This document shows, piece by piece, positions 41,501 through 60,240 of a stretch of DNA of 64,000 nt. This DNA comes from Lachnospiraceae bacterium. GTDB lineage: Bacteria > Bacillota > Clostridia > Lachnospirales > Lachnospiraceae. A program made the position numbers and the translations under genes. Under the pieces are notes generated by a model. It was not told where the DNA came from and made no database searches. It saw only the letters and a list, made by a program, of their open reading frames with translations. Numbering within the stretch: the first letter of the stretch is position 1; each line of letters opens with the position of its first letter. The stretch lies in the NCBI GenBank assembly GCA_029338735.1, contig JAQYAY010000038.1:3669-67668 (forward strand), in the 5' to 3' direction.

Positions 41501-41562
41501 GTCAACCTCCTGCTATAAGTCTGATTCCCAGACCTTCTTTTTTGTTTATATATTATTTCTTT

Positions 41563-41612
41563 GCGGCCTTATGCACCGCTGCGTCGAAAGAGAGCGAGAG
41601 CGAGTCATGAAC
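41563..41612 (+). repeat. Truncated copy (3' half) of the structured element found at 52568 and 54809
   Basis: ttatgcaccgctgcgtc (41569-41585) is identical 17/17 to 52640-52656. After 7-8 nt it is followed by agcgagagcg.gtc..gaa, as in the full copies. No matching 5' arm is present. Confidence 0.5.
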
Positions 41613-41721
41613 AGCTGCATGTGATAGCTGCTCCGTCAAACACTGCGTTTTTTCATAATATGAAAGAAGGACTGAGAACCAGCGAATTCCCAATCCTTCT
41701 ATCAACAATTTGACAATAGAT

Positions 41722-45120: not shown

Positions 45121-45141
45121 GGATTAATTTTCCTCCATTAT

Positions 45142-45208
45142 TAGGGGTTAGGAGTCAGGGGCCAGGGATTGGTTTACCAAAAACCCTATCCCCTATATCC
45201 TATCCTCT
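45142..45208. repeat. Inverted arrays of 7-nt units (G-rich/C-rich type) between bcd and hbd
   Basis: The left array is taggggt taggagt caggggc cagggat (45142-45169). The apex is tggtttacca. The right array is aaaccct atcccct atatcct atcctct (45181-45208). Confidence 0.75.
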
Positions 45209-46090
45209 TTACTGCTTGTCAACCGGAACCTTATTCTTGAAGCCCTGTGAATAATCATAGAAGCCTCTTCCACTCTTGACACCGAGATGTCCTGCACGAA
45301 CCATCTTCTTAAGAAGCGGAGCCGGACGATACTTGGAATCTGCTGTCTCTGTATAGAGTACGTTCATGATCGCAAGTACGATATCAAGTCCGATGTAGTC
45401 GCCGAGCTCAAGTGGTCCCATTGGGTGATTGCATCCGAGCTTCATGGCATTATCAACACCCTCGATATCTGCAACACCCTCTGAATATACGAAGATTCCT
45501 TCGTTGATCATCGGGATGAGGATACGGTTTGCAACGAAGCCTGCTGACTCCTGAACACGTACAGGCGTCTTTCCAAGCTTTCTTGCGATCTCCTCAACCT
45601 TCTCTACTGTCTCGTCAGGTGTGTTAGCGCCCTTGATGACCTCGATGAGCTTCATAACAGGTGCCGGGTTGAAAAAGTGCATTCCGATCACAGGAGTCTT
45701 TAAGCCTGCACCGATCTCTGTGATTGAAAGTGATGATGTATTTGATGCGAAAATGCAGTCAGGATTCTTGACGATATTCTCTTCAAGATCTTTGAAGCAA
45801 TTCTTCTTGATGTCCATAACCTCAAGAGCAGCCTCTACTACGAGATCAGGATCTGTAGCGATTGTATTGAGACCTGTCTTGAACTTGCCAACGATAGCGT
45901 CAGCCTTGGCCTGATCCATCTTGCCCTTGCTTACGAGCTTGTCAAGATTCTTCTTTACCTTGCCGAGTCCGCCCTCAGCGAACTCCTCTTTGATGTCGCA
46001 GAGATATACTGTCTCTACTTCATCGCACTGTGCGAATGTCTGGGCAATTCCTGAGCCCATAGTTCCGGCGCCGATACCTGCAACCTTCAT
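45209..46090 (-). CDS. hbd: 3-hydroxybutyryl-CoA dehydrogenase
   Basis: 293 aa. The Rossmann motif is [12 protein letters not shown], with the HFFNPAP motif. Confidence 0.95.
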
Positions 46091-46115: not shown

Positions 46116-46164
46116 TGTTAGTTAGGGAATAGGAGTCAGGGGGTAGGGGTTAGAGTAGCGAGTA
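46116..46164. repeat. Left arm (G-rich 7-nt units) of the hairpin element enclosing the four-helix-bundle gene
   Basis: The units are tgttagt tagggaa taggagt caggggg taggggt tagagta gcgagta. It is 23/27 identical to the left arm at 45141-45167. It encodes the gene's C-terminal ...NPYPLTPIP. Confidence 0.7.
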
Positions 46165-46514
46165 TTTCCCAGTTTCCGAATAATTGCACCAAGCATTTTA
46201 CCGACTTCATTGCATAATGAAAGTGCCAGATTAACCTGTTCCGCAGAAAGATAGGCAAGCCTAACACAAATTTCCAATTGTGTTTCTAACTCTGCTCTGG
46301 AACCTTGTGCAATTGATAAAAACCTTAAATATTCTCTGGTAGTATTTCTTTCATAGCCTTCTGCTATATTTGAAGGTATTGATACCACTGATCTTCTCAT
46401 CTGATCAGAAAGTGCATATAGTTCTTCTTTTGGAAGAGATTTTACAATATTATAAACTTCTTCCACAAGCATAATGCTCTTCTGCCAGACAATTAAATCC
46501 CTGTAACTATCCAT
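46122..46514 (-). CDS. Four-helix-bundle protein (23S rRNA intervening-sequence protein family)
   Basis: 130 aa. YRDLIVWQKS...LPKEELYALSDQMRRSVVSIPSNIAEGYER...FLSIAQGSRAELETQL matches the family consensus. Confidence 0.85.
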   Translation of the reverse strand: MDSYRDLIVWQKSIMLVEEVYNIVKSLPKEELYALSDQMRRSVVSIPSNIAEGYERNTTREYLRFLSIAQGSRAELETQLEICVRLAYLSAEQVNLALSLCNEVGKMLGAIIRKLGNTRYSNPYPLTPIP

Positions 46515-50887: not shown

Positions 50888-50961
50888 CGTGCCCGAGAGG
50901 ATTCGAACCCCCGACACCTTGGTCCGTAGCCAAGTGCTCTATCCAGCTGAGCTACGAGCAC
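50888..50961 (-). tRNA. tRNA-Arg (ACG)
   Basis: The cloverleaf was read by eye: acceptor GUGCUCG/CGGGCAC and anticodon arm CUUGG-CUACGGA-CCAAG. No CCA is encoded. Confidence 0.85.
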
Positions 50962-51030
50962 ACACTAAATGACCGGTAATGGCCTTACGCAACTTCTATT
51001 ATTATAGCACAATCGAAAAGACTATGCAAA

Positions 51031-51114
51031 TGCCGGCGACCGGGATCGAACCGGTACGATGTCACCACCACAGGATTTTAAGTCCTGCGCGTCTGCCAGT
51101 TCCGCCACGCCGGC
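51031..51114 (-). tRNA. tRNA-Leu (UAA)
   Basis: The acceptor is GCCGGCG/CGCCGGC and the anticodon loop is CUUAAAA. A long variable arm is present. Confidence 0.85.
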
Positions 51115-51232
51115 TCGTTGACGCAAGTTCTGCTTCCTCGCGTCTGTCTTGAAAAGCAGACAGACGCAAAATTCGCTCCACTGCGTCTCCTCTCCCCACG
51201 AAGCAGGCTTCGTGGGGTACTGGACACTCCGC
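51115..51232 (-). other. 118-nt structured spacer between tRNA-Asp and tRNA-Leu
   Basis: It contains two perfect 10-bp hairpins: ccccacgaag/cttcgtgggg and gcgtctgtct/agacagacgc. Alternative GACGC/GCGTC pairings are also possible. It ends in acttgcgt, like the leader before tRNA-Glu. Confidence 0.6.
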
Positions 51233-51306
51233 CGACCTGAGAGGGGTTCGAACCCTCGACCTCCGCCGTGACAGGGCGGCGCTCTAACCAACTGAGCCAC
51301 CAGGCC
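51233..51306 (-). tRNA. tRNA-Asp (GUC)
   Basis: The acceptor is GGCCUGG/UCAGGUC (two G-U pairs). The anticodon arm is CCGCC-CUGUCAC-GGCGG. Confidence 0.8.
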
Positions 51307-51329
51307 TCACTCCGTAAATTACGGATAAG

Positions 51330-51403
51330 TGGATCCTCGGGGACTCGAACCCAGGACCGACCGGTTATGAGCCGGTTGCTCTAACCAACTGAGCTAAGGA
51401 TCC
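51330..51403 (-). tRNA. tRNA with CAU anticodon (elongator Met or lysidine-modified Ile2)
   Basis: The acceptor is GGAUCCU/AGGAUCC. The anticodon arm is ACCGG-CUCAUAA-CCGGU. The T stem has one U-C mismatch. Confidence 0.8.
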
Positions 51404-51429
51404 GGACGGGTAGCAAAGACCCGATTAAC

Positions 51430-51501
51430 TGACTCCGACGGGAATTGAACCCGTGTTACCGCCGTGAAAGGGCGATGTCTTAACCGCTTGACCACGGAGC
51501 C
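51430..51501 (-). tRNA. tRNA-Glu (UUC)
   Basis: The acceptor is GGCUCCG/CGGAGUC. The anticodon arm is UCGCC-CUUUCAC-GGCGG. Confidence 0.85.
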
Positions 51502-52246: not shown

Positions 52247-52537
52247 TTAATTCTTTGGTGCCTTAAACGGGCTTATATTAAGGCTCGAAAAGTAAGATGC
52301 ACCAACTATAAATACCAGAATATATACGAATATATAGCATACTGCGATCACCAGGCCACAGATCACAAGTCTGTCATTTTTTTCACTGTTCTTGCCATGA
52401 AGAAAAGCGAACACTACAGATGCAACAGCTGACGCAAGTCCTAAGTACCATCTCAGGCAGCTGAGAAGCAGTGCAGCTATACTAAGAGTCAAGCACAATA
52501 TCTTATATACTAATATTTTTCTGTCATTTTTATCCAT
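52247..52537 (-). CDS. Hypothetical small membrane protein
   Basis: 96 aa with three hydrophobic helices. Confidence 0.45.
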   Translation of the reverse strand: MDKNDRKILVYKILCLTLSIAALLLSCLRWYLGLASAVASVVFAFLHGKNSEKNDRLVICGLVIAVCYIFVYILVFIVGASYFSSLNISPFKAPKN

Positions 52538-52567
52538 ATCTATGCTAATCTATGTTAAAATATATCA

Positions 52568-52707
52568 GAAGAGAGATGACACAGAATCCATGAGAGACCT
52601 TTTGAGACGCCGGTGCATAAGCAGGTGTCCTTTACCTGCTTATGCACCGCTGCGTCTAAACATTAGCGAGAGCGTGTCTCGAATGGATTGCTGTGTCAGC
52701 TCTCTTC
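52568..52707 (+). ncRNA. Candidate structured cis-acting RNA element (copy B) in the 5' leader of the alpha/beta hydrolase gene
   Basis: The P1 stem is about 23 bp (gaagagagatgacacagaatccat / atggattgctgtgtcagctctcttc). P2 is gagac/gtctc, flanked by GA/GA. The long hairpin runs gacgccggtgcataagcaggt...acctgcttatgcaccgctgcgtc. The conserved segment is taaacattagcgagagcgtg. The element ends 16 nt before the ATG. Confidence 0.5.
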
Positions 52708-52723
52708 GGAAAGGATTACATAA

Positions 52724-53458
52724 ATGGTTATAGTTCTTGGTTCACAGGTCATATATTATGAGCATAAGGCTGGCAGGGACGGTGCAAAGCCACTGATACT
52801 GCTGCATGGAAATGGTGAGGATCACCATATTTTTGATACGCTCATGGATGCACTGGGTGATGAATATGAAATCTACGCACCTGATACCCGTGGTCATGGG
52901 ATGTCAGCCTGTCCTGAAGAGCTGCACTATTCTGATATGGCAGACGACCTCATGCATTTCATAATAGAACTATCCATAGACAGACCATTAATCGTCGGCT
53001 TCTCCGATGGAGCCATTACGGCATTGCTTTTTGCCACGATTCATTCCGATATGGCAAGTGGGATCATCTCCTGTGGGGCCAATACGACTCCGAAAGGCAT
53101 CACACTCAGTGAACGCTCACAGATCAAAAAAGCTTATAAAAAGAAAATCTCTTCAAAGAAAACTTTTGAAAAGACTCTCGATACCATATCAAGTGAAATC
53201 TACGCCGAGACAGGTACTCTTGAAAAGCTGATGCTCACAGAACCGGACATCTCAGATATAGCTCTTTCACATATCTCAGTTCCTGTCCTGGTGCTTGCCG
53301 GACAGAATGATGCTGTCAAAGAATCTGATACCAGGAAGATATATTCTTCAATCCCGAAAAGTGACATGCACATCATCCCTGGCGAAGACCATGGAAGCTA
53401 CATCATCAATTCTGATAAACTAAAACCATATATAGAAGGATTTGACAGCTTCTTCTAA
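52724..53458 (+). CDS. Alpha/beta hydrolase
   Basis: 244 aa. The HG oxyanion motif is LLHGNGED. The nucleophile elbow is GFSDG. The C-terminus has D...H. Confidence 0.8.
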   Translation: MVIVLGSQVIYYEHKAGRDGAKPLILLHGNGEDHHIFDTLMDALGDEYEIYAPDTRGHGMSACPEELHYSDMADDLMHFIIELSIDRPLIVGFSDGAITALLFATIHSDMASGIISCGANTTPKGITLSERSQIKKAYKKKISSKKTFEKTLDTISSEIYAETGTLEKLMLTEPDISDIALSHISVPVLVLAGQNDAVKESDTRKIYSSIPKSDMHIIPGEDHGSYIINSDKLKPYIEGFDSFF

Positions 53459-53482
53459 ACTGCCAGATCCTTATGATCTCTA

Positions 53483-54787
53483 TTAACTGTTCTTGACAGG
53501 ATGCTTTGGTATAAGCTTCTCAGTTCCACCCATGTATGGCTGAATAACCTTCGGGATGCTGACTGTACCATCGGCATTCAGATTGTTTTCAAGGAATGCA
53601 ATAAGCATACGAGGTGGTGCAACTACAGTATTATTAAGCGTATTTGCAAAATACTTCGTGCCATCTGCAGCTTTTACCCTGATTCCAAGTCTACGAGCCT
53701 GAGCATCTCCGAGATTTGAGCAGCTGCCTACCTCGAAATACTTCTGCTGTCTAGGGCTCCACGCCTCTACATCGCAGCTCTTTACCTTGAGGTCTGCGAG
53801 ATCTCCTGAGCAGCACTCAAGAGTACGTACAGGGATATCCATGCTTCTGAAGAGTTCTACAGTATAGCTCCAGAGCTTGTTGTACCAGTCCCAGGCCTCT
53901 TCCGGCTTGCAGACTACTATCATCTCCTGCTTCTCGAACTGATGGATACGGTATACACCACGCTCCTCAATACCATGAGCACCCTTCTCTTTTCTGAAAC
54001 AAGGTGAATATGATGTCATTGTATATGGAAGGTCTTCCTCATTATTGAGGGTATCCTTATAACGGCCGATCATTGAATGCTCTGAAGTACCAATAAGATA
54101 AAGGTCCTCGCCCTCGATCTTATACATCATGGCATCCATTTCCTCGAAGCTCATGACACCGTCAACGACTGCTGAATGGATCATGTAAGGAGGAATACAG
54201 TATGTAAATCCTTTATTGATCATGAAGTCTCTTGCGTATGCAAGGACTGCTGAATGAAGTCTTGCAATATCTCCGAGCAGGTAATAGAATCCGTTTCCAG
54301 CTACCTTTCCAGCGGCATCAAGATCGATTCCATCGAAACTCTCCATGATATCCGTATGATATGGGATAGGAAAATCAGGAACTACCGGATCACCAAATCT
54401 CTCGATCTCCTGATTGTATGAATCATCAGGACCGATCGGGACTGTAGGATCAATGATATTCGGGATCACCATCATATCATCGTGAACCTTCTCTGAGTAC
54501 TCTTTCTCCTTTTCCTCAAGCTCAGCGAGCTTGTCAGCCTGTGCAGTGACCTGTGCCTTGACCTTCTCGGCTTCGTCCTTTTTACCTTCCTTCATCAGGA
54601 CACCGATCTGTTTCGAGAGCTTATTTCTCTCGGCACGGAGATTGTCGGCCTCGCCTTTTGCCTCACGGGAGAGCTTGTCATACTTGAGTACTTCGTCTAC
54701 TAACGGAAGCTTCTTGTCCTGGAACTTCTTCTTGATGTTCTCACGGACAGCGTCCGGATTTTCTCTTAGAAATTTAATGTCTATCAT
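53483..54787 (-). CDS. serS: Seryl-tRNA synthetase
   Basis: 434 aa. It has an N-terminal coiled-coil arm and class II motifs, including FRKEKGAHGIEERGVYRIHQFEK. Confidence 0.95.
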   Translation of the reverse strand: MIDIKFLRENPDAVRENIKKKFQDKKLPLVDEVLKYDKLSREAKGEADNLRAERNKLSKQIGVLMKEGKKDEAEKVKAQVTAQADKLAELEEKEKEYSEKVHDDMMVIPNIIDPTVPIGPDDSYNQEIERFGDPVVPDFPIPYHTDIMESFDGIDLDAAGKVAGNGFYYLLGDIARLHSAVLAYARDFMINKGFTYCIPPYMIHSAVVDGVMSFEEMDAMMYKIEGEDLYLIGTSEHSMIGRYKDTLNNEEDLPYTMTSYSPCFRKEKGAHGIEERGVYRIHQFEKQEMIVVCKPEEAWDWYNKLWSYTVELFRSMDIPVRTLECCSGDLADLKVKSCDVEAWSPRQQKYFEVGSCSNLGDAQARRLGIRVKAADGTKYFANTLNNTVVAPPRMLIAFLENNLNADGTVSIPKVIQPYMGGTEKLIPKHPVKNS

Positions 54788-54808
54788 TTTATTAATAACT
54801 CCTATTCT

Positions 54809-54952
54809 CGATGATGTTGTGCCATTGAGCCGCTCGAGGCACGCTTTCGCTAATGCTTAGACGCAACGGACGCATAGGCGGCTTGAAGAACAGCCGCCAA
54901 GCGCCGGCGTCACGCTATTACCTCTCGCGACTCATGGCACACCCTCATCTCG
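54809..54952 (-). ncRNA. Candidate structured cis-acting RNA element (copy C) between glyA and serS
   Basis: It has the same architecture as copy B. The junctions are conserved: ccatgag, gacgccgg, and gcgtctaagcattagcgaaagcgtg. The stems carry compensatory differences, for example ggcggc/gccgcc against aagcagg/cctgctt. Confidence 0.5.
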
Positions 54953-54965
54953 TATATGCACCTGC

Positions 54966-56216
54966 TTAAAAGAATTTAGCTGAAAGTGGATACTTATCTG
55001 TCAGCGTCTGTATTATTGCTCTTGCAGCCGGGATTCCATCTTCCTTCTGGTTGATAACTGTAGCAATGGCTTCAGCTACCTGGTCGAAGTCATCTTCCTT
55101 AAGGCCTCTGGTCGTTGCTGCCGGAGTACCGAGACGGATTCCTGAGGTCACAAACGGGCTCTTCGGATCGTTCGGAACTGTGTTCTTATTGGCTGTGATA
55201 TGAGCCTCATCAAGCCATGTCTCAACCTCTTTACCAGTCAGATCCTTATTGATCAGATCTACGAGCATCAGATGGTTGTCAGTACCGCCGGATACGATAT
55301 CCACTCCTCTGCTCATTAGTCCCTTTGAAAGAGACTGTGCATTCAGAATGATCTGATGCGCATATTCCTTGAATTCAGGAGTCATGGCTTCCTTGAAGCA
55401 CACTGCCTTGGCTGCGATGACATGCATCAGAGGGCCTCCCTGGATTCCAGGGAATACAGCCTTATTGAGCTTGTACTTCTTGCTGGCTTCCTCTGTAGCA
55501 AGGATGAGTCCGCCTCTTGGTCCACGAAGAGTCTTGTGCGTAGTAGTCGTCACAATGTCCGCGTATGGAACTGGTGACTGATGATATCCTGTTGCCACAA
55601 GACCAGCGATATGAGCCATATCAACCATGAGAACAGCTCCGACCTCATGTGCAATCTCAGCGAACCTCTTGAAATCAATTGCTCTTGCATATGCAGATGC
55701 ACCGGCAATGATCATCTTCGGCTTGCACTCTTTTGCAATAGCCTCTACCTTGTCATAATCGATGAATCCCTGATCATTGACTCCATAAGGAACAATATGG
55801 AAATAATGTCCTGAGAAATTGGCCGGTGAACCATGAGTCAGATGACCGCCGTGATCAAGGCTCATACCCATGATCGTATCTCCAGGCTCACATACTGCGT
55901 ACTCAACAGCCATATTAGCCTGAGCACCAGAATGCGGCTGGACATTGGCATACTCGGCACCGAAGAGCTTCTTCGCACGGTCTCTGGCAAGATCCTCGAT
56001 GATATCGACTTTCTCGCATCCACCATAATACCTGTGACCTGGATAGCCCTCAGCATACTTATTTGTGAGAATGCTTCCCATCGCACTCATTACAGCTGGA
56101 CTCACCCAGTTCTCAGATGCGATCAGCTCAATGTGGCTGGCCTGCCTGTCATATTCCTCACAGATAGCCTGTGCAACTTCCGGGTCTTCATTCCTGATGT
56201 CGTCAATAGTGTACAT
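54966..56216 (-). CDS. glyA: Serine hydroxymethyltransferase
   Basis: 416 aa. The PLP-lysine context is [14 protein letters not shown]. Confidence 0.95.
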
Positions 56217-56230
56217 AACATTTCTCCTTT

Positions 56231-56258
56231 TAAAAAAGGCCGGGATTGGCCCGGCCTC
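56231..56258 (-). terminator. Terminator-like hairpin after secDF, abutting the glyA RBS
   Basis: On the minus strand the sequence is gaggccggg-ccaa-tcccggcc, then tttttt, directly followed by AAAAGGAGAAATGTT-ATG. Confidence 0.6.
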
Positions 56259-56262
56259 AAAC

Positions 56263-58653: not shown

Positions 58654-60063
58654 TTATACAGTTTTTTCTTTACTCTCCTGAAGCTTCGCATCCTTTTCGG
58701 CACACGCAGCTTTTATCATGATTGCGCACTCGATTCTCTTCTTCTCGAGTGCACAGCCAATCTCATATACATCACGGAGATTGCCCGTGAAATTGTATGC
58801 ATTCGCAGTGCATCCGCCGCTGCAGTAGAACTTCGCAAAGCACTTCCTGCATTTAGGCCTTGAATATACATTGCAGCCCTTGAACTCGGTCACGATGTCC
58901 TGACGGCTGATGCCATCCCATACATTTCCGATCTTGAAATCCGGTTTTCCGACAAACTGATGACACGGAAAAATGCTTCCATCCGGGGTCACCGACACAT
59001 ACTCTGTGCCTGAGCCACAGCCTGAAAGCCTCTTATAAACACAAGGTCCGCCTTCGAGATCGATCATGAAATGGAAGAAATTGAACTCTCTGTCAGTTCC
59101 ATGACGTTCAACCATTTCCCTGGCCAGGATATCGTACTGCTCTTCAAGTACCGGAATATCCTCAGGTCTCAGTGAATAGTCTGCTTCTGGTGGAGCCACA
59201 ACAGGCTCGATGCTTATCTGTCTGAAACCGAGATCAGCCATTGCGAGAATATCTTTTGCAAAATCGAGATTGTATCTCGTATATGTGCCCCTGACATAAT
59301 ACTGCTTGCCAAGCTTCTCGCGCATTGCTGCGAACTTCTGATACTTCGGAACGATGATATCCCATGTAGTATCGCCATTATGGAATGGTCTCATGTGGTC
59401 ATGGACCTCCTTACGGCCATCAATGGACATTACGACATTGTCCATCTCCTGATTGGCAAAATCCATGATCTCGTCATTTAAGAGAATTCCATTGGTAGTG
59501 AATGTGAAACGGAAATTCTTGTCACACTCTTTCTCACGGCTTCTTCCATATGCTACGAGCTTCTTTACGACATCAAAATTAAGCGTCGGCTCACCACCAA
59601 AAAAATCCACTTCCAGATTCTTTCTGTGACCCGAATTCGCTATCAGAAAATCAAGTGCCGCCTTTCCTGTCTCATAGCTCATGAGCTCTGCCTTCTTACC
59701 AAAATACAGACCTTCGTCTGCAAAGCAGTACCGGCAGCTCAGATTGCACGCATGTGCGACATTTAAGCACATGGCCTTCACGACTGTAGGTCTCTTCGTA
59801 TAGTCAATCACACGATTCTCATATGGATCTACAGTAAAAAGAGCATTCTGATTCTTCAGCTCCGTGATCTCATCGTATGCTTCCTCAATATCCTGCTGTG
59901 ATTCGCCAGGATACTTCTCCACTATTTCAGAAATGACTTTTTCTCTCGGCTTCTCCTCGTATTCACTGATCATATCATAAGTGGGATCATCAACTACATG
60001 AATAGCCCCTGAATTCACATCCAGGACGATGTCGTACCCATTATTCTTATACTGGTGAATCAA
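58654..60063 (-). CDS. Radical SAM/SPASM maturase of the SCIFF peptide
   Basis: 469 aa. The CxxxCxxC motif is CNLSCRYC. The C-terminus is a Cys-rich SPASM domain. It lies immediately downstream of the SCIFF precursor. Confidence 0.85.
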   Translation of the reverse strand: MIHQYKNNGYDIVLDVNSGAIHVVDDPTYDMISEYEEKPREKVISEIVEKYPGESQQDIEEAYDEITELKNQNALFTVDPYENRVIDYTKRPTVVKAMCLNVAHACNLSCRYCFADEGLYFGKKAELMSYETGKAALDFLIANSGHRKNLEVDFFGGEPTLNFDVVKKLVAYGRSREKECDKNFRFTFTTNGILLNDEIMDFANQEMDNVVMSIDGRKEVHDHMRPFHNGDTTWDIIVPKYQKFAAMREKLGKQYYVRGTYTRYNLDFAKDILAMADLGFRQISIEPVVAPPEADYSLRPEDIPVLEEQYDILAREMVERHGTDREFNFFHFMIDLEGGPCVYKRLSGCGSGTEYVSVTPDGSIFPCHQFVGKPDFKIGNVWDGISRQDIVTEFKGCNVYSRPKCRKCFAKFYCSGGCTANAYNFTGNLRDVYEIGCALEKKRIECAIMIKAACAEKDAKLQESKEKTV

Positions 60064-60090: not shown

Positions 60091-60240
60091 TTATTTCTGT
60101 GCAGGATTCTCGCAGTGCTGATTTCCTACTGTGCAGCTGGTCTTGCATGCTGACTGGCATGAAGTCTGGCACTCACCGCATCCGCCGTGCTGCATTGTGT
60201 TCTGAAGTCTCTTTTCATTTAATGTCTTGATGTGTTTCAT
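60091..60240 (-). CDS. SCIFF (six cysteines in forty-five residues) ribosomal peptide precursor
   Basis: Absent from the ORF track (49 aa). The product is MKHIKTLNEKRLQNTMQHGGCGECQTSCQSACKTSCTVGNQHCENPAQK*. The GGCGECQTSCQSACKTSCTVGNQ core is the family signature. Confidence 0.85.
   Translation of the reverse strand: MKHIKTLNEKRLQNTMQHGGCGECQTSCQSACKTSCTVGNQHCENPAQK

Follow-up and report, generated by a model that had tools for sequence, protein, structure and literature searches.

Immediately upstream of two start codons in a Lachnospiraceae genome (GenBank assembly GCA_029338735.1, contig JAQYAY010000038.1, positions 3,669 to 67,668 of the forward strand; this 64,000-nucleotide (nt) stretch is called the window here) lie two segments of about 140 nt with the same branched fold, termed copy B, in front of an alpha/beta hydrolase gene, and copy C, between glyA and serS (Table 1). 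Are these segments regulatory leaders of the genes that follow them, or members of a repeat that happens to have settled there? A preliminary description, made from the letters alone, had left the choice between a riboswitch-like or protein-binding leader and a structured repeat. The present analysis supports the second part of that alternative, as the element is multi-copy, occurs in both orientations and is absent from the corresponding sites of relatives, while the riboswitch-like leader finds no support as a general explanation. Copies B and C, together with a decayed remnant designated copy A, probably represent an undescribed family of dispersed intergenic structured repeats of ~120-180 nt, present in some Lachnospiraceae and comparable to ERIC and REPIN-type repeats.

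The common fold of B and C is a three-way junction composed of an outer stem (P1), a hairpin (P2) and a mini-hairpin (P3). P1 is long (20-38 bp) and its sequence varies between copies. The base of P2 is an invariant GACGC/GCGUC helix, followed by a 2-nt YU bulge and then CGG/CCG; the interior consists of an internal loop with conserved UUA/UUA(U) sequence and of a distal stem that varies, and the tip is a GUNYUUU loop or, in some lineages, a longer insert. Junction sequences that had looked single-stranded form an extension of P2 (for example UUGA/UAAA, GUGA/GAAC and UAUGA/UCAUA), often with tandem G.A or A.G pairs. P3 is a GC-GNRA-GC mini-hairpin. In some lineages (loci L092, L094, L110, L112 and L122), an additional loop with the conserved sequence GAGC-NNN-AGCGAA sits on a variable closing stem at the P2 tip. 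The window contains the shared blocks GACGCCGG...CCGYTGCGTCTAA two times, where no occurrence is expected, and the positions, sequence blocks and stems of both copies are as first reported, including an outer stem and a distal hairpin that differ in sequence between B and C and yet remain complementary.

A covariance model (R1) was built from 28 aligned members. Among 31 full copies, 95.1% of the modelled cells are paired, compared with 76.5% after shuffling and 26-41% when the partners are slid, and both-sided changes are found in 18 of 25 pairs; none of 500 shuffles reached the observed values. The covariation first noticed between two copies is thus strong in the larger set. The P1 arms also stay paired (Watson-Crick at 777 of 894 aligned positions) in spite of their rapid divergence: between copies of one genome, identity is 82-87% in the core and only 43-58% in the outer arms. 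In RUG096, the thrS copy differs from that of a 99% strain by at least three compensated changes of P1 pairs, with an identical core.

This family is outside Rfam, and no published description was found in a literature search. A cmscan with all 4227 models of Rfam 15 gave no match to the element, either with the gathering score as threshold or with E values of up to 10 admitted, in agreement with the preliminary description of a candidate new RNA or repeat; the two weak matches obtained for 52450-55050 at E up to 10 both lie outside the elements, and 18 related loci gave no match at the element at the gathering threshold. The T-box model RF00230 matched neither B nor C at E up to 10. A resemblance to one arm of tetrahydrofolate (THF) riboswitches had been suggested, but the Rfam THF models matched nothing in 52450-55050 at the same limit. 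Searches by blastn against plasmid and phage collections returned no similar sequence, and in IMG/VR the strict 23-nt core was absent and the single match to a relaxed core, at 13 bits, was put down to chance. Several known structures were considered and set aside: the junction sequences do not suit a hammerhead, which also had no Rfam match, and domain V of group II introns has a similar geometry of 5 bp plus a 2-nt bulge but differs in length and in its AGC triad, which the element lacks.

The distribution of the element points to a multi-copy and lineage-restricted family. A relaxed core pattern was scanned over 185,579 genomes, one per species, and gave 45 matches, namely 28 full copies, 3 partial copies and 14 others. 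The 31 full or partial copies all come from Lachnospiraceae or unnamed Bacillota assemblies of rumen or gut origin; the other 14, in GC-rich genomes outside the Lachnospiraceae, show nothing of the element beyond the pattern and were dismissed as chance. The covariance model added five copies within the same 8-kb loci. RUG096, whose sequence at copies A and C hardly differs from that of the window, has at least nine copies; one Brotaphodocola genome has at least six by pattern and three more by model, ABMPRH_281_1 at least three, and S36M_St_66 at least two plus one, two of which form an inverted pair in the argJ-argB spacer of the arg operon (L091). Three copies were found within 8 kb in locus L088.

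Comparison of equivalent sites indicates how the copies come and go. The gene order trigger factor-SCIFF-radical SAM-secDF-glyA-serS-hydrolase is conserved in relatives, and where the flanking proteins are 88-98% identical, the element is either absent or decayed to a bare hairpin. The glyA-serS spacer is 178 nt with a full copy in the window and RUG096, 61 nt with only a small hairpin (a possible P1 remnant) in relatives with 98% identical seryl-tRNA synthetase (SerRS), and 20 nt, hence empty, in relatives with 94% and 91% SerRS. Likewise, the site 5' of the hydrolase gene is full in the window, has lost P2 in the 98% SerRS relatives and is empty, with a spacer of 50-51 nt, in those at 94% and 91%. 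At the secDF-glyA site no full copy was seen: RUG096 has a P2-less copy, the 98% SerRS relatives (L125) a hairpin with a T-run that lacks both P2 and P3, and the window a plain terminator (56217-56262) unrelated to the element. No decayed form was found at the thrS site, which is full at 99% and 96% ThrRS identity and lacks the element at 95%, or at the glnS site, full at 91% GlnRS identity and without the element at 88%.

These comparisons show that copies decay by internal deletion into plain hairpins. Short direct repeats (CTT; GGCACGCT) flank the deletions. At the secDF-glyA site the series runs from a P2-less form through a form without P2 and P3 to a strong hairpin followed by TTTTTT in the sense direction of secDF (L100 4815-4925, L125 6495-6600); at this site, a repeat seems to have become a terminator. 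The small hairpin of the 98% SerRS strains (L125 7935-8003), GGCUGAUGUCAC-UU-GUGACAGAAGCC, is similar to the outer P1 consensus of its lineage and may be a solitary remnant of P1. Copy A shows a similar state: it retains P3, the 3' half of P2 and a portion of the 3' arm of P1, lies antisense to both flanking genes and is also present as a remnant at the equivalent site in RUG096 (L098).

The boundaries of copy B were set by the empty site in locus L128 (...TATATCA|GAAGAGAG...CTCTCTTC|GGAAAGGA). Its exact removal (GAAGAGAG...CTCTCTTC) leaves TCA|GGAAAGGA..ATG, which aligns with the empty site TCAAACGGGAGG..ATG. No target-site duplication is visible in this comparison or at the boundaries of 33 copies, although the empty sites come from relatives at 91-94% identity and a duplication of 1-2 nt could go unseen. 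Immediately before the element stands an A in roughly half of the copies parsed automatically and in the majority of those curated by hand. Each copy has its own inverted arms, with loosely shared GG.../...CC termini (GGCTCCG/CGGAGCC in Brotaphodocola). Insertion into pre-existing terminators was rejected, as most copies are without a T-run, and so was an invertible promoter, as the arms differ between copies and the interior contains no promoter.

Is the position of B and C, then, informative about function? Both are oriented in the sense direction and end close to an ATG, as the preliminary description had it: the 3' end of B is 16 nt from the hydrolase ATG (52724) and that of C is 21 nt from the serS ATG (54787), its 5' end being 13 nt past the glyA stop codon. 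Proximity to the Shine-Dalgarno sequence (SD) is, however, expected for a repeat, because any insertion into a short spacer ends near a start codon. Only ~10 of the 31 full copies are sense-oriented within 40 nt 5' of a start codon, and for ~21 the next 160 nt contain no start codon in the sense direction. Many lie antisense in spacers of co-directional genes, which they fill to within 12-25 nt of either neighbor. The genes 3' of copies form a functionally mixed set (serS, thrS, glnS, icd, argB, cbiD, and genes for a cytidylate-kinase-like protein, the alpha/beta hydrolase, a BcrAD/HgdC-like protein and a response regulator). Numerous copies, in both orientations and without coherent gene association, are what had been set beforehand as evidence against a leader, and the leader reading is not supported as a general explanation.

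Control of serS and the hydrolase gene by a riboswitch that senses a metabolite or tRNA is accordingly very improbable, and largely refuted. A covarying three-way junction directly 5' of two start codons would suit it, and the glyA/serS context suggests serine, glycine or folate as ligand. The Rfam searches gave no match, however, and strains with 98% identical SerRS lack the full element at the same site. No copy was found in the serS loci of 80 related metagenomic Lachnospiraceae (75-82% SerRS identity, 643 kb), some of which have T-box-like motifs instead. A T-box-like GGGTGGCAACGCGG motif can be read upstream of serS in L014-L021, L026, L027, L047 and L057, and other serS loci of related Lachnospiraceae have glyA-serS with a ~70-nt spacer, so that the regulation of serS seems heterogeneous in this family. 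An exact-sequence look-up of the SerRS of the window gave no record, and P0001, a 605-aa SerRS, was discarded because it comes from an unrelated context. The thrS leader of RUG096 (L089, 5262-5503) contains a complete T-box (107.5 bits) with its terminator, and the element sits ~55 nt after that terminator and before the SD, which marks it as an extra insert in the 5' untranslated region (UTR) and not as the amino-acid sensor. The downstream genes are unrelated to one another, and many copies have no downstream gene. Neither B nor C shows an intrinsic terminator after the outer stem or an alternative pairing that would sequester the SD, which is unpaired in both the minimum free energy and the centroid folds. 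The element thus probably senses no metabolite for serS or the hydrolase. Like T-boxes and leader riboswitches, it is a structured, covarying RNA 5' of aminoacyl-tRNA synthetase genes with several copies per genome; unlike them, it has no Rfam match or expression platform, follows a true T-box at thrS and has a presence at given genes that is not conserved among related genomes.

The copies of one genome evolve together. In RUG096, the thrS and glnS copies both have the J1/2-J2/3 junctions UAAUAGCGU/UAAGCAUUA, whereas the sister-species copies at the same two sites have CCUUAUGR/YCAUACGGA; the junction subtype agrees between thrS and glnS within each genome. A subtype that is shared within a genome and not across species at the same site implies concerted evolution, by gene conversion or replacement, which is typical of dispersed repeats. 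Same-site copies of RUG335 (L081 614-740) and RUG096 (L117 3675-3801) differ in one short stretch only, located in the 3' arm of P1 (CAAATGGC versus CGAGCAAC); the RUG335 stretch resembles its counterpart in copy B of the window, which suggests patchy gene conversion between copies. Taken with the data on equivalent sites, these observations show that the family is multi-copy and lineage-restricted, and that it is gained, lost and homogenized in short spacers while its fold is maintained.

The fold appears to be maintained on one strand. Among the pairs of the modelled core, G.U outnumbers A.C by 18 to 4, and in P1 by 29 to 9 (p 0.0017), a count restricted to P1, as an earlier arm alignment that extended into the flanks gave similar numbers of G.U and A.C; in P1, there are also 61 G.A oppositions against 18 other mismatches. 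Many of these non-Watson-Crick positions are inherited and are not independent events. Features that are meaningful on the sense strand only, namely the G.A pairs, the GNRA loop and the U-rich P2 loop, are kept. This asymmetry fits recognition of a folded single strand, and RNA and single-stranded DNA (ssDNA) are both compatible with it, because GC-GNRA-GC is very stable as a DNA mini-hairpin as well. The antisense copies inside operons argue against a need for read-through transcription. Maintenance of the sense-strand fold suggests that a trans-acting factor probably recognizes the folded single strand, as RNA or ssDNA.

Table 1. Copies of the element in the window, their structural parts and adjoining features.
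Feature	Position	Strand	Basis or remark
Copy B, full element, 140 nt	52568..52707	+	Read from sequence; fold -87.5 kcal/mol, z -11.2 against shuffled sequence; covariance model 101.5 bits
Copy C, full element, 144 nt, fills the glyA-serS spacer	54809..54952	-	Fold -81.0 kcal/mol, z -6.3 against shuffled sequence; covariance model 97.3 bits
Copy A, decayed remnant, 5'-truncated	~41559..41628	+	Covariance model 21.2 bits; fold not significant (z +1.15 against shuffled sequence)
B, P1 5' arm, purine-rich, copy-variable	52568..52598	+	Pairs with 52676-52707
B, P2 hairpin: GACGC/GCGUC base, YU bulge, CGG/CCG, UUA/UUAU loop, variable distal stem, GUCCUUU loop	52606..52656	+	Alignment, covariation
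B, P3, GC-GAGA-GC (GNRA loop)	52666..52673	+	Alignment
B, P1 3' arm	52676..52707	+	Pairs with P1 5' arm
C, P2 hairpin	54860..54911	-	Alignment
C, P3, GC-GAAA-GC	54843..54850	-	Alignment
Extended -10-like TGnTAAAAT	52553..52561	+	Read from sequence; aligns with TATAAT at the empty site in L128
Alpha/beta hydrolase gene, 3' of B	52724..53458	+	Pfam
serS, 3' of C	53483..54787	-	Gene call and Pfam
glyA (serine hydroxymethyltransferase), directly 5' of C	54966..56216	-	Gene call and Pfam

Among known repeats, the element behaves most like ERIC (also called IRU) or REPIN-type sequences, from which it differs by its branched conserved core and variable arms. ERIC sequences are imperfect palindromes of ~130 nt, intergenic, located mostly in transcribed regions, with a lineage-dependent copy number. 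Both they and the present element are restricted to intergenic positions in either orientation, occupy a given site in some relatives and are missing from it in others, vary in copy number with lineage and have the center as the best conserved part; ERIC has no transposase of its own. There is no sequence similarity between the two, which occur in different phyla; ERIC forms a simple hairpin and the element a branched three-way junction with a GNRA mini-hairpin, whose outer arms diverge fast while remaining paired. The likeness to ERIC is therefore an analogy and not membership. REP, BIME and REPIN sequences are dispersed extragenic palindromes that form hairpins, singly or as inverted pairs (compare the L091 pair), show no target-site duplication and evolve within the genome like a population. 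REP units can stabilize upstream mRNA or act in termination. They are, however, 20-40 nt long, with a conserved stem and a 5' tetranucleotide, and are present in hundreds, whereas the element is 120-180 nt long and branched, with a variable stem and a conserved center, and its copies number in the tens (lower-bound counts). RAYT transposases accompany REPIN repeats (Bertels et al., 2017, PMC5581495); none was seen among the called genes around copies in the sampled loci.

Other repeats offer partial parallels. Miniature inverted-repeat transposable elements (MITEs) that fold in RNA are inserted in intergenic regions near start codons and co-transcribed with their neighbors, and their long stems are plausible RNase III targets. 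Correia/NEMIS, RUP, BOX and EFAR elements are of similar size and share these three properties with the element, but MITEs have terminal inverted repeats common to all copies and a target duplication; here the termini are loosely conserved and no duplication is visible. Integron attC sites were also considered and rejected. The ends of the element do not fit the R''/R' cores (RYYYAAC / GTTRRRY), and its neighbors, in the window and in the loci of relatives, are housekeeping genes, not genes of integrases or cassette arrays.

Several observations weigh against a plain dispersed repeat. The copy numbers are minimum values for each genome, and the sampling of loci favored those with matches. The GNRA signature was partly imposed by the search pattern, so that only the five model-only copies test it independently; their P3 loops are GAGA, GAAA or GGGA, and one has a compensated stem, GU-GAGA-AC. 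A simple palindromic repeat would not need features as elaborate as the conserved GNRA loop, the tandem G.A pairs and the conserved P2 loop. No mobilizing enzyme, master copy or target-site duplication was found for the sampled copies, and mobility rests on presence/absence and copy number. In the lineage of the window, moreover, 6 of 7 intact copies are sense-oriented 23-35 nt before a start codon, three of them preceding the aminoacyl-tRNA synthetase genes serS, thrS and glnS. This bias is unlikely under random insertion, because synthetases make up ~1% of genes. The pattern could stem from preferential insertion into long or highly transcribed leaders, from survivorship or from a genuine regulatory function of the subfamily. 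The thrS and glnS copies have been retained in a sister species across species-level divergence, and such persistence makes a regulatory role for this subfamily possible.

A further proposal is that the conserved three-way junction may be the recognition module of a trans-acting machine, the element being either a new kind of non-autonomous element copied via its folded single strand (RNA or ssDNA), with no need for terminal repeats or a target duplication, or a mobile post-transcriptional control module read by a host protein. We regard this as tentative and rather doubtful. The main rival, a cis-acting RNA module that is bound by a trans-acting protein or RNA, co-regulates dispersed genes including the synthetases post-transcriptionally and spreads by duplication, is unlikely. 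It would draw on the conserved sense-strand signatures (GNRA, tandem G.A, excess of G.U over A.C), on the placement of the 6 of 7 copies in the RUG096/window lineage and on the retention at thrS and glnS, and the genome-wide joint shift of the junction subtype could reflect co-evolution with a partner. None of the nine Brotaphodocola copies, however, and only a minority of those elsewhere, are both sense-oriented and 5' of a gene; serS and the hydrolase gene lack an intact element in relatives at 91-98% identity, decayed copies are common, the gene set is functionally mixed, and there is no expression platform, the SD being free.

More clearly unlikely is a site acting at the DNA level, in which folded ssDNA or a cruciform serves as the substrate of a recombinase or HUH transposase (compare IS200/IS605 ends, REP/RAYT and attC) and the RNA fold is incidental. 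The lack of a visible target-site duplication, both orientations relative to transcription and near-perfect, fast-changing arms, as from hairpin-templated DNA correction, would agree with such a site, as would the exceptional stability of GC-GNRA-GC as a DNA mini-hairpin. On the other side, no transposase or integrase gene adjoins any sampled copy, no transposase domain above threshold was found among the called genes around them, cores of the attC type are missing, and the phage, plasmid and IMG/VR collections gave no matches; B and C, 2 kb apart and opposite in orientation, do not obey a strict lagging-strand rule. Least probable of all are independent small-RNA genes, for which the stable conserved fold and a possible -10 element directly 5' of B could be cited, as no consistent promoter precedes the copies, most have no terminator T-run past the outer stem and most fill intra-operon spacers.

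Returning to the structured-repeat interpretation, its consequences for the two genes of the window can be sketched. Copy B is likely an insert between the transcription start and the SD of the hydrolase gene. The extended -10-like TGnTAAAAT, which a consensus promoter scan did not list as it has no -35 element, would place the transcription start at ~52567-52568, the first base of P1. The repeat would spread without terminal repeats or target duplication, and a copy that is co-transcribed, as B and C would be, would fold very stably at the 5' end of an mRNA or between cistrons and leave the SD free: a 5'-terminal structure of about -87 kcal/mol on the hydrolase mRNA in the case of B, and an intercistronic structure between glyA and serS in that of C. 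REP, ERIC and Correia structures can stabilize transcripts, be RNase III targets or become terminators. By analogy, the element may modulate the stability or processing of mRNA, as a 5' stabilizer or through RNase III cleavage in the ~30-bp P1, and decayed copies may act as terminator hairpins.

Other features of the window were recorded. A cluster of five tRNA genes (50888-51501, minus strand; Rfam tRNA matches of 56-67 bits) lies ~1 kb from copy B. A SCIFF peptide gene of 49 aa with six cysteines (...GGCGECQTSCQSACKTSCTVGNQHC...; 60091-60240, minus strand) adjoins its radical SAM maturase gene (58654-60063, minus strand), a pairing that is likewise annotated in the corresponding loci L125-L130. 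The two spacers on either side of the gene at 45209-46090 each contain a copy of a G-rich 30-nt direct repeat, TTAGGGGTTAGGAGTCAGGGG... (45141-45170 and 46122-46151); one of these copies abuts an open reading frame of 130 aa (46122-46514, minus strand).

These results remove a false riboswitch lead: the apparent leaders of serS and the hydrolase gene are insertions that are missing from close relatives, and in Lachnospiraceae of rumen and gut, repeats of this sort can be mistaken for regulatory RNAs. A repeat family outside Rfam now has a usable covariance model for annotation and for the discovery of non-coding RNAs in these bacteria. The branched conserved core, the fast-changing compensated arms, concerted evolution and step-wise decay into terminator-like hairpins are an unusual set of traits, and they make the family a tractable case for the spread of structured repeats in Firmicutes and for the reshaping of 5' UTRs and intra-operon spacers. 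If a host protein reads the mobile module, its spread would wire new genes into one regulon, including the three aminoacyl-tRNA synthetase genes found here.

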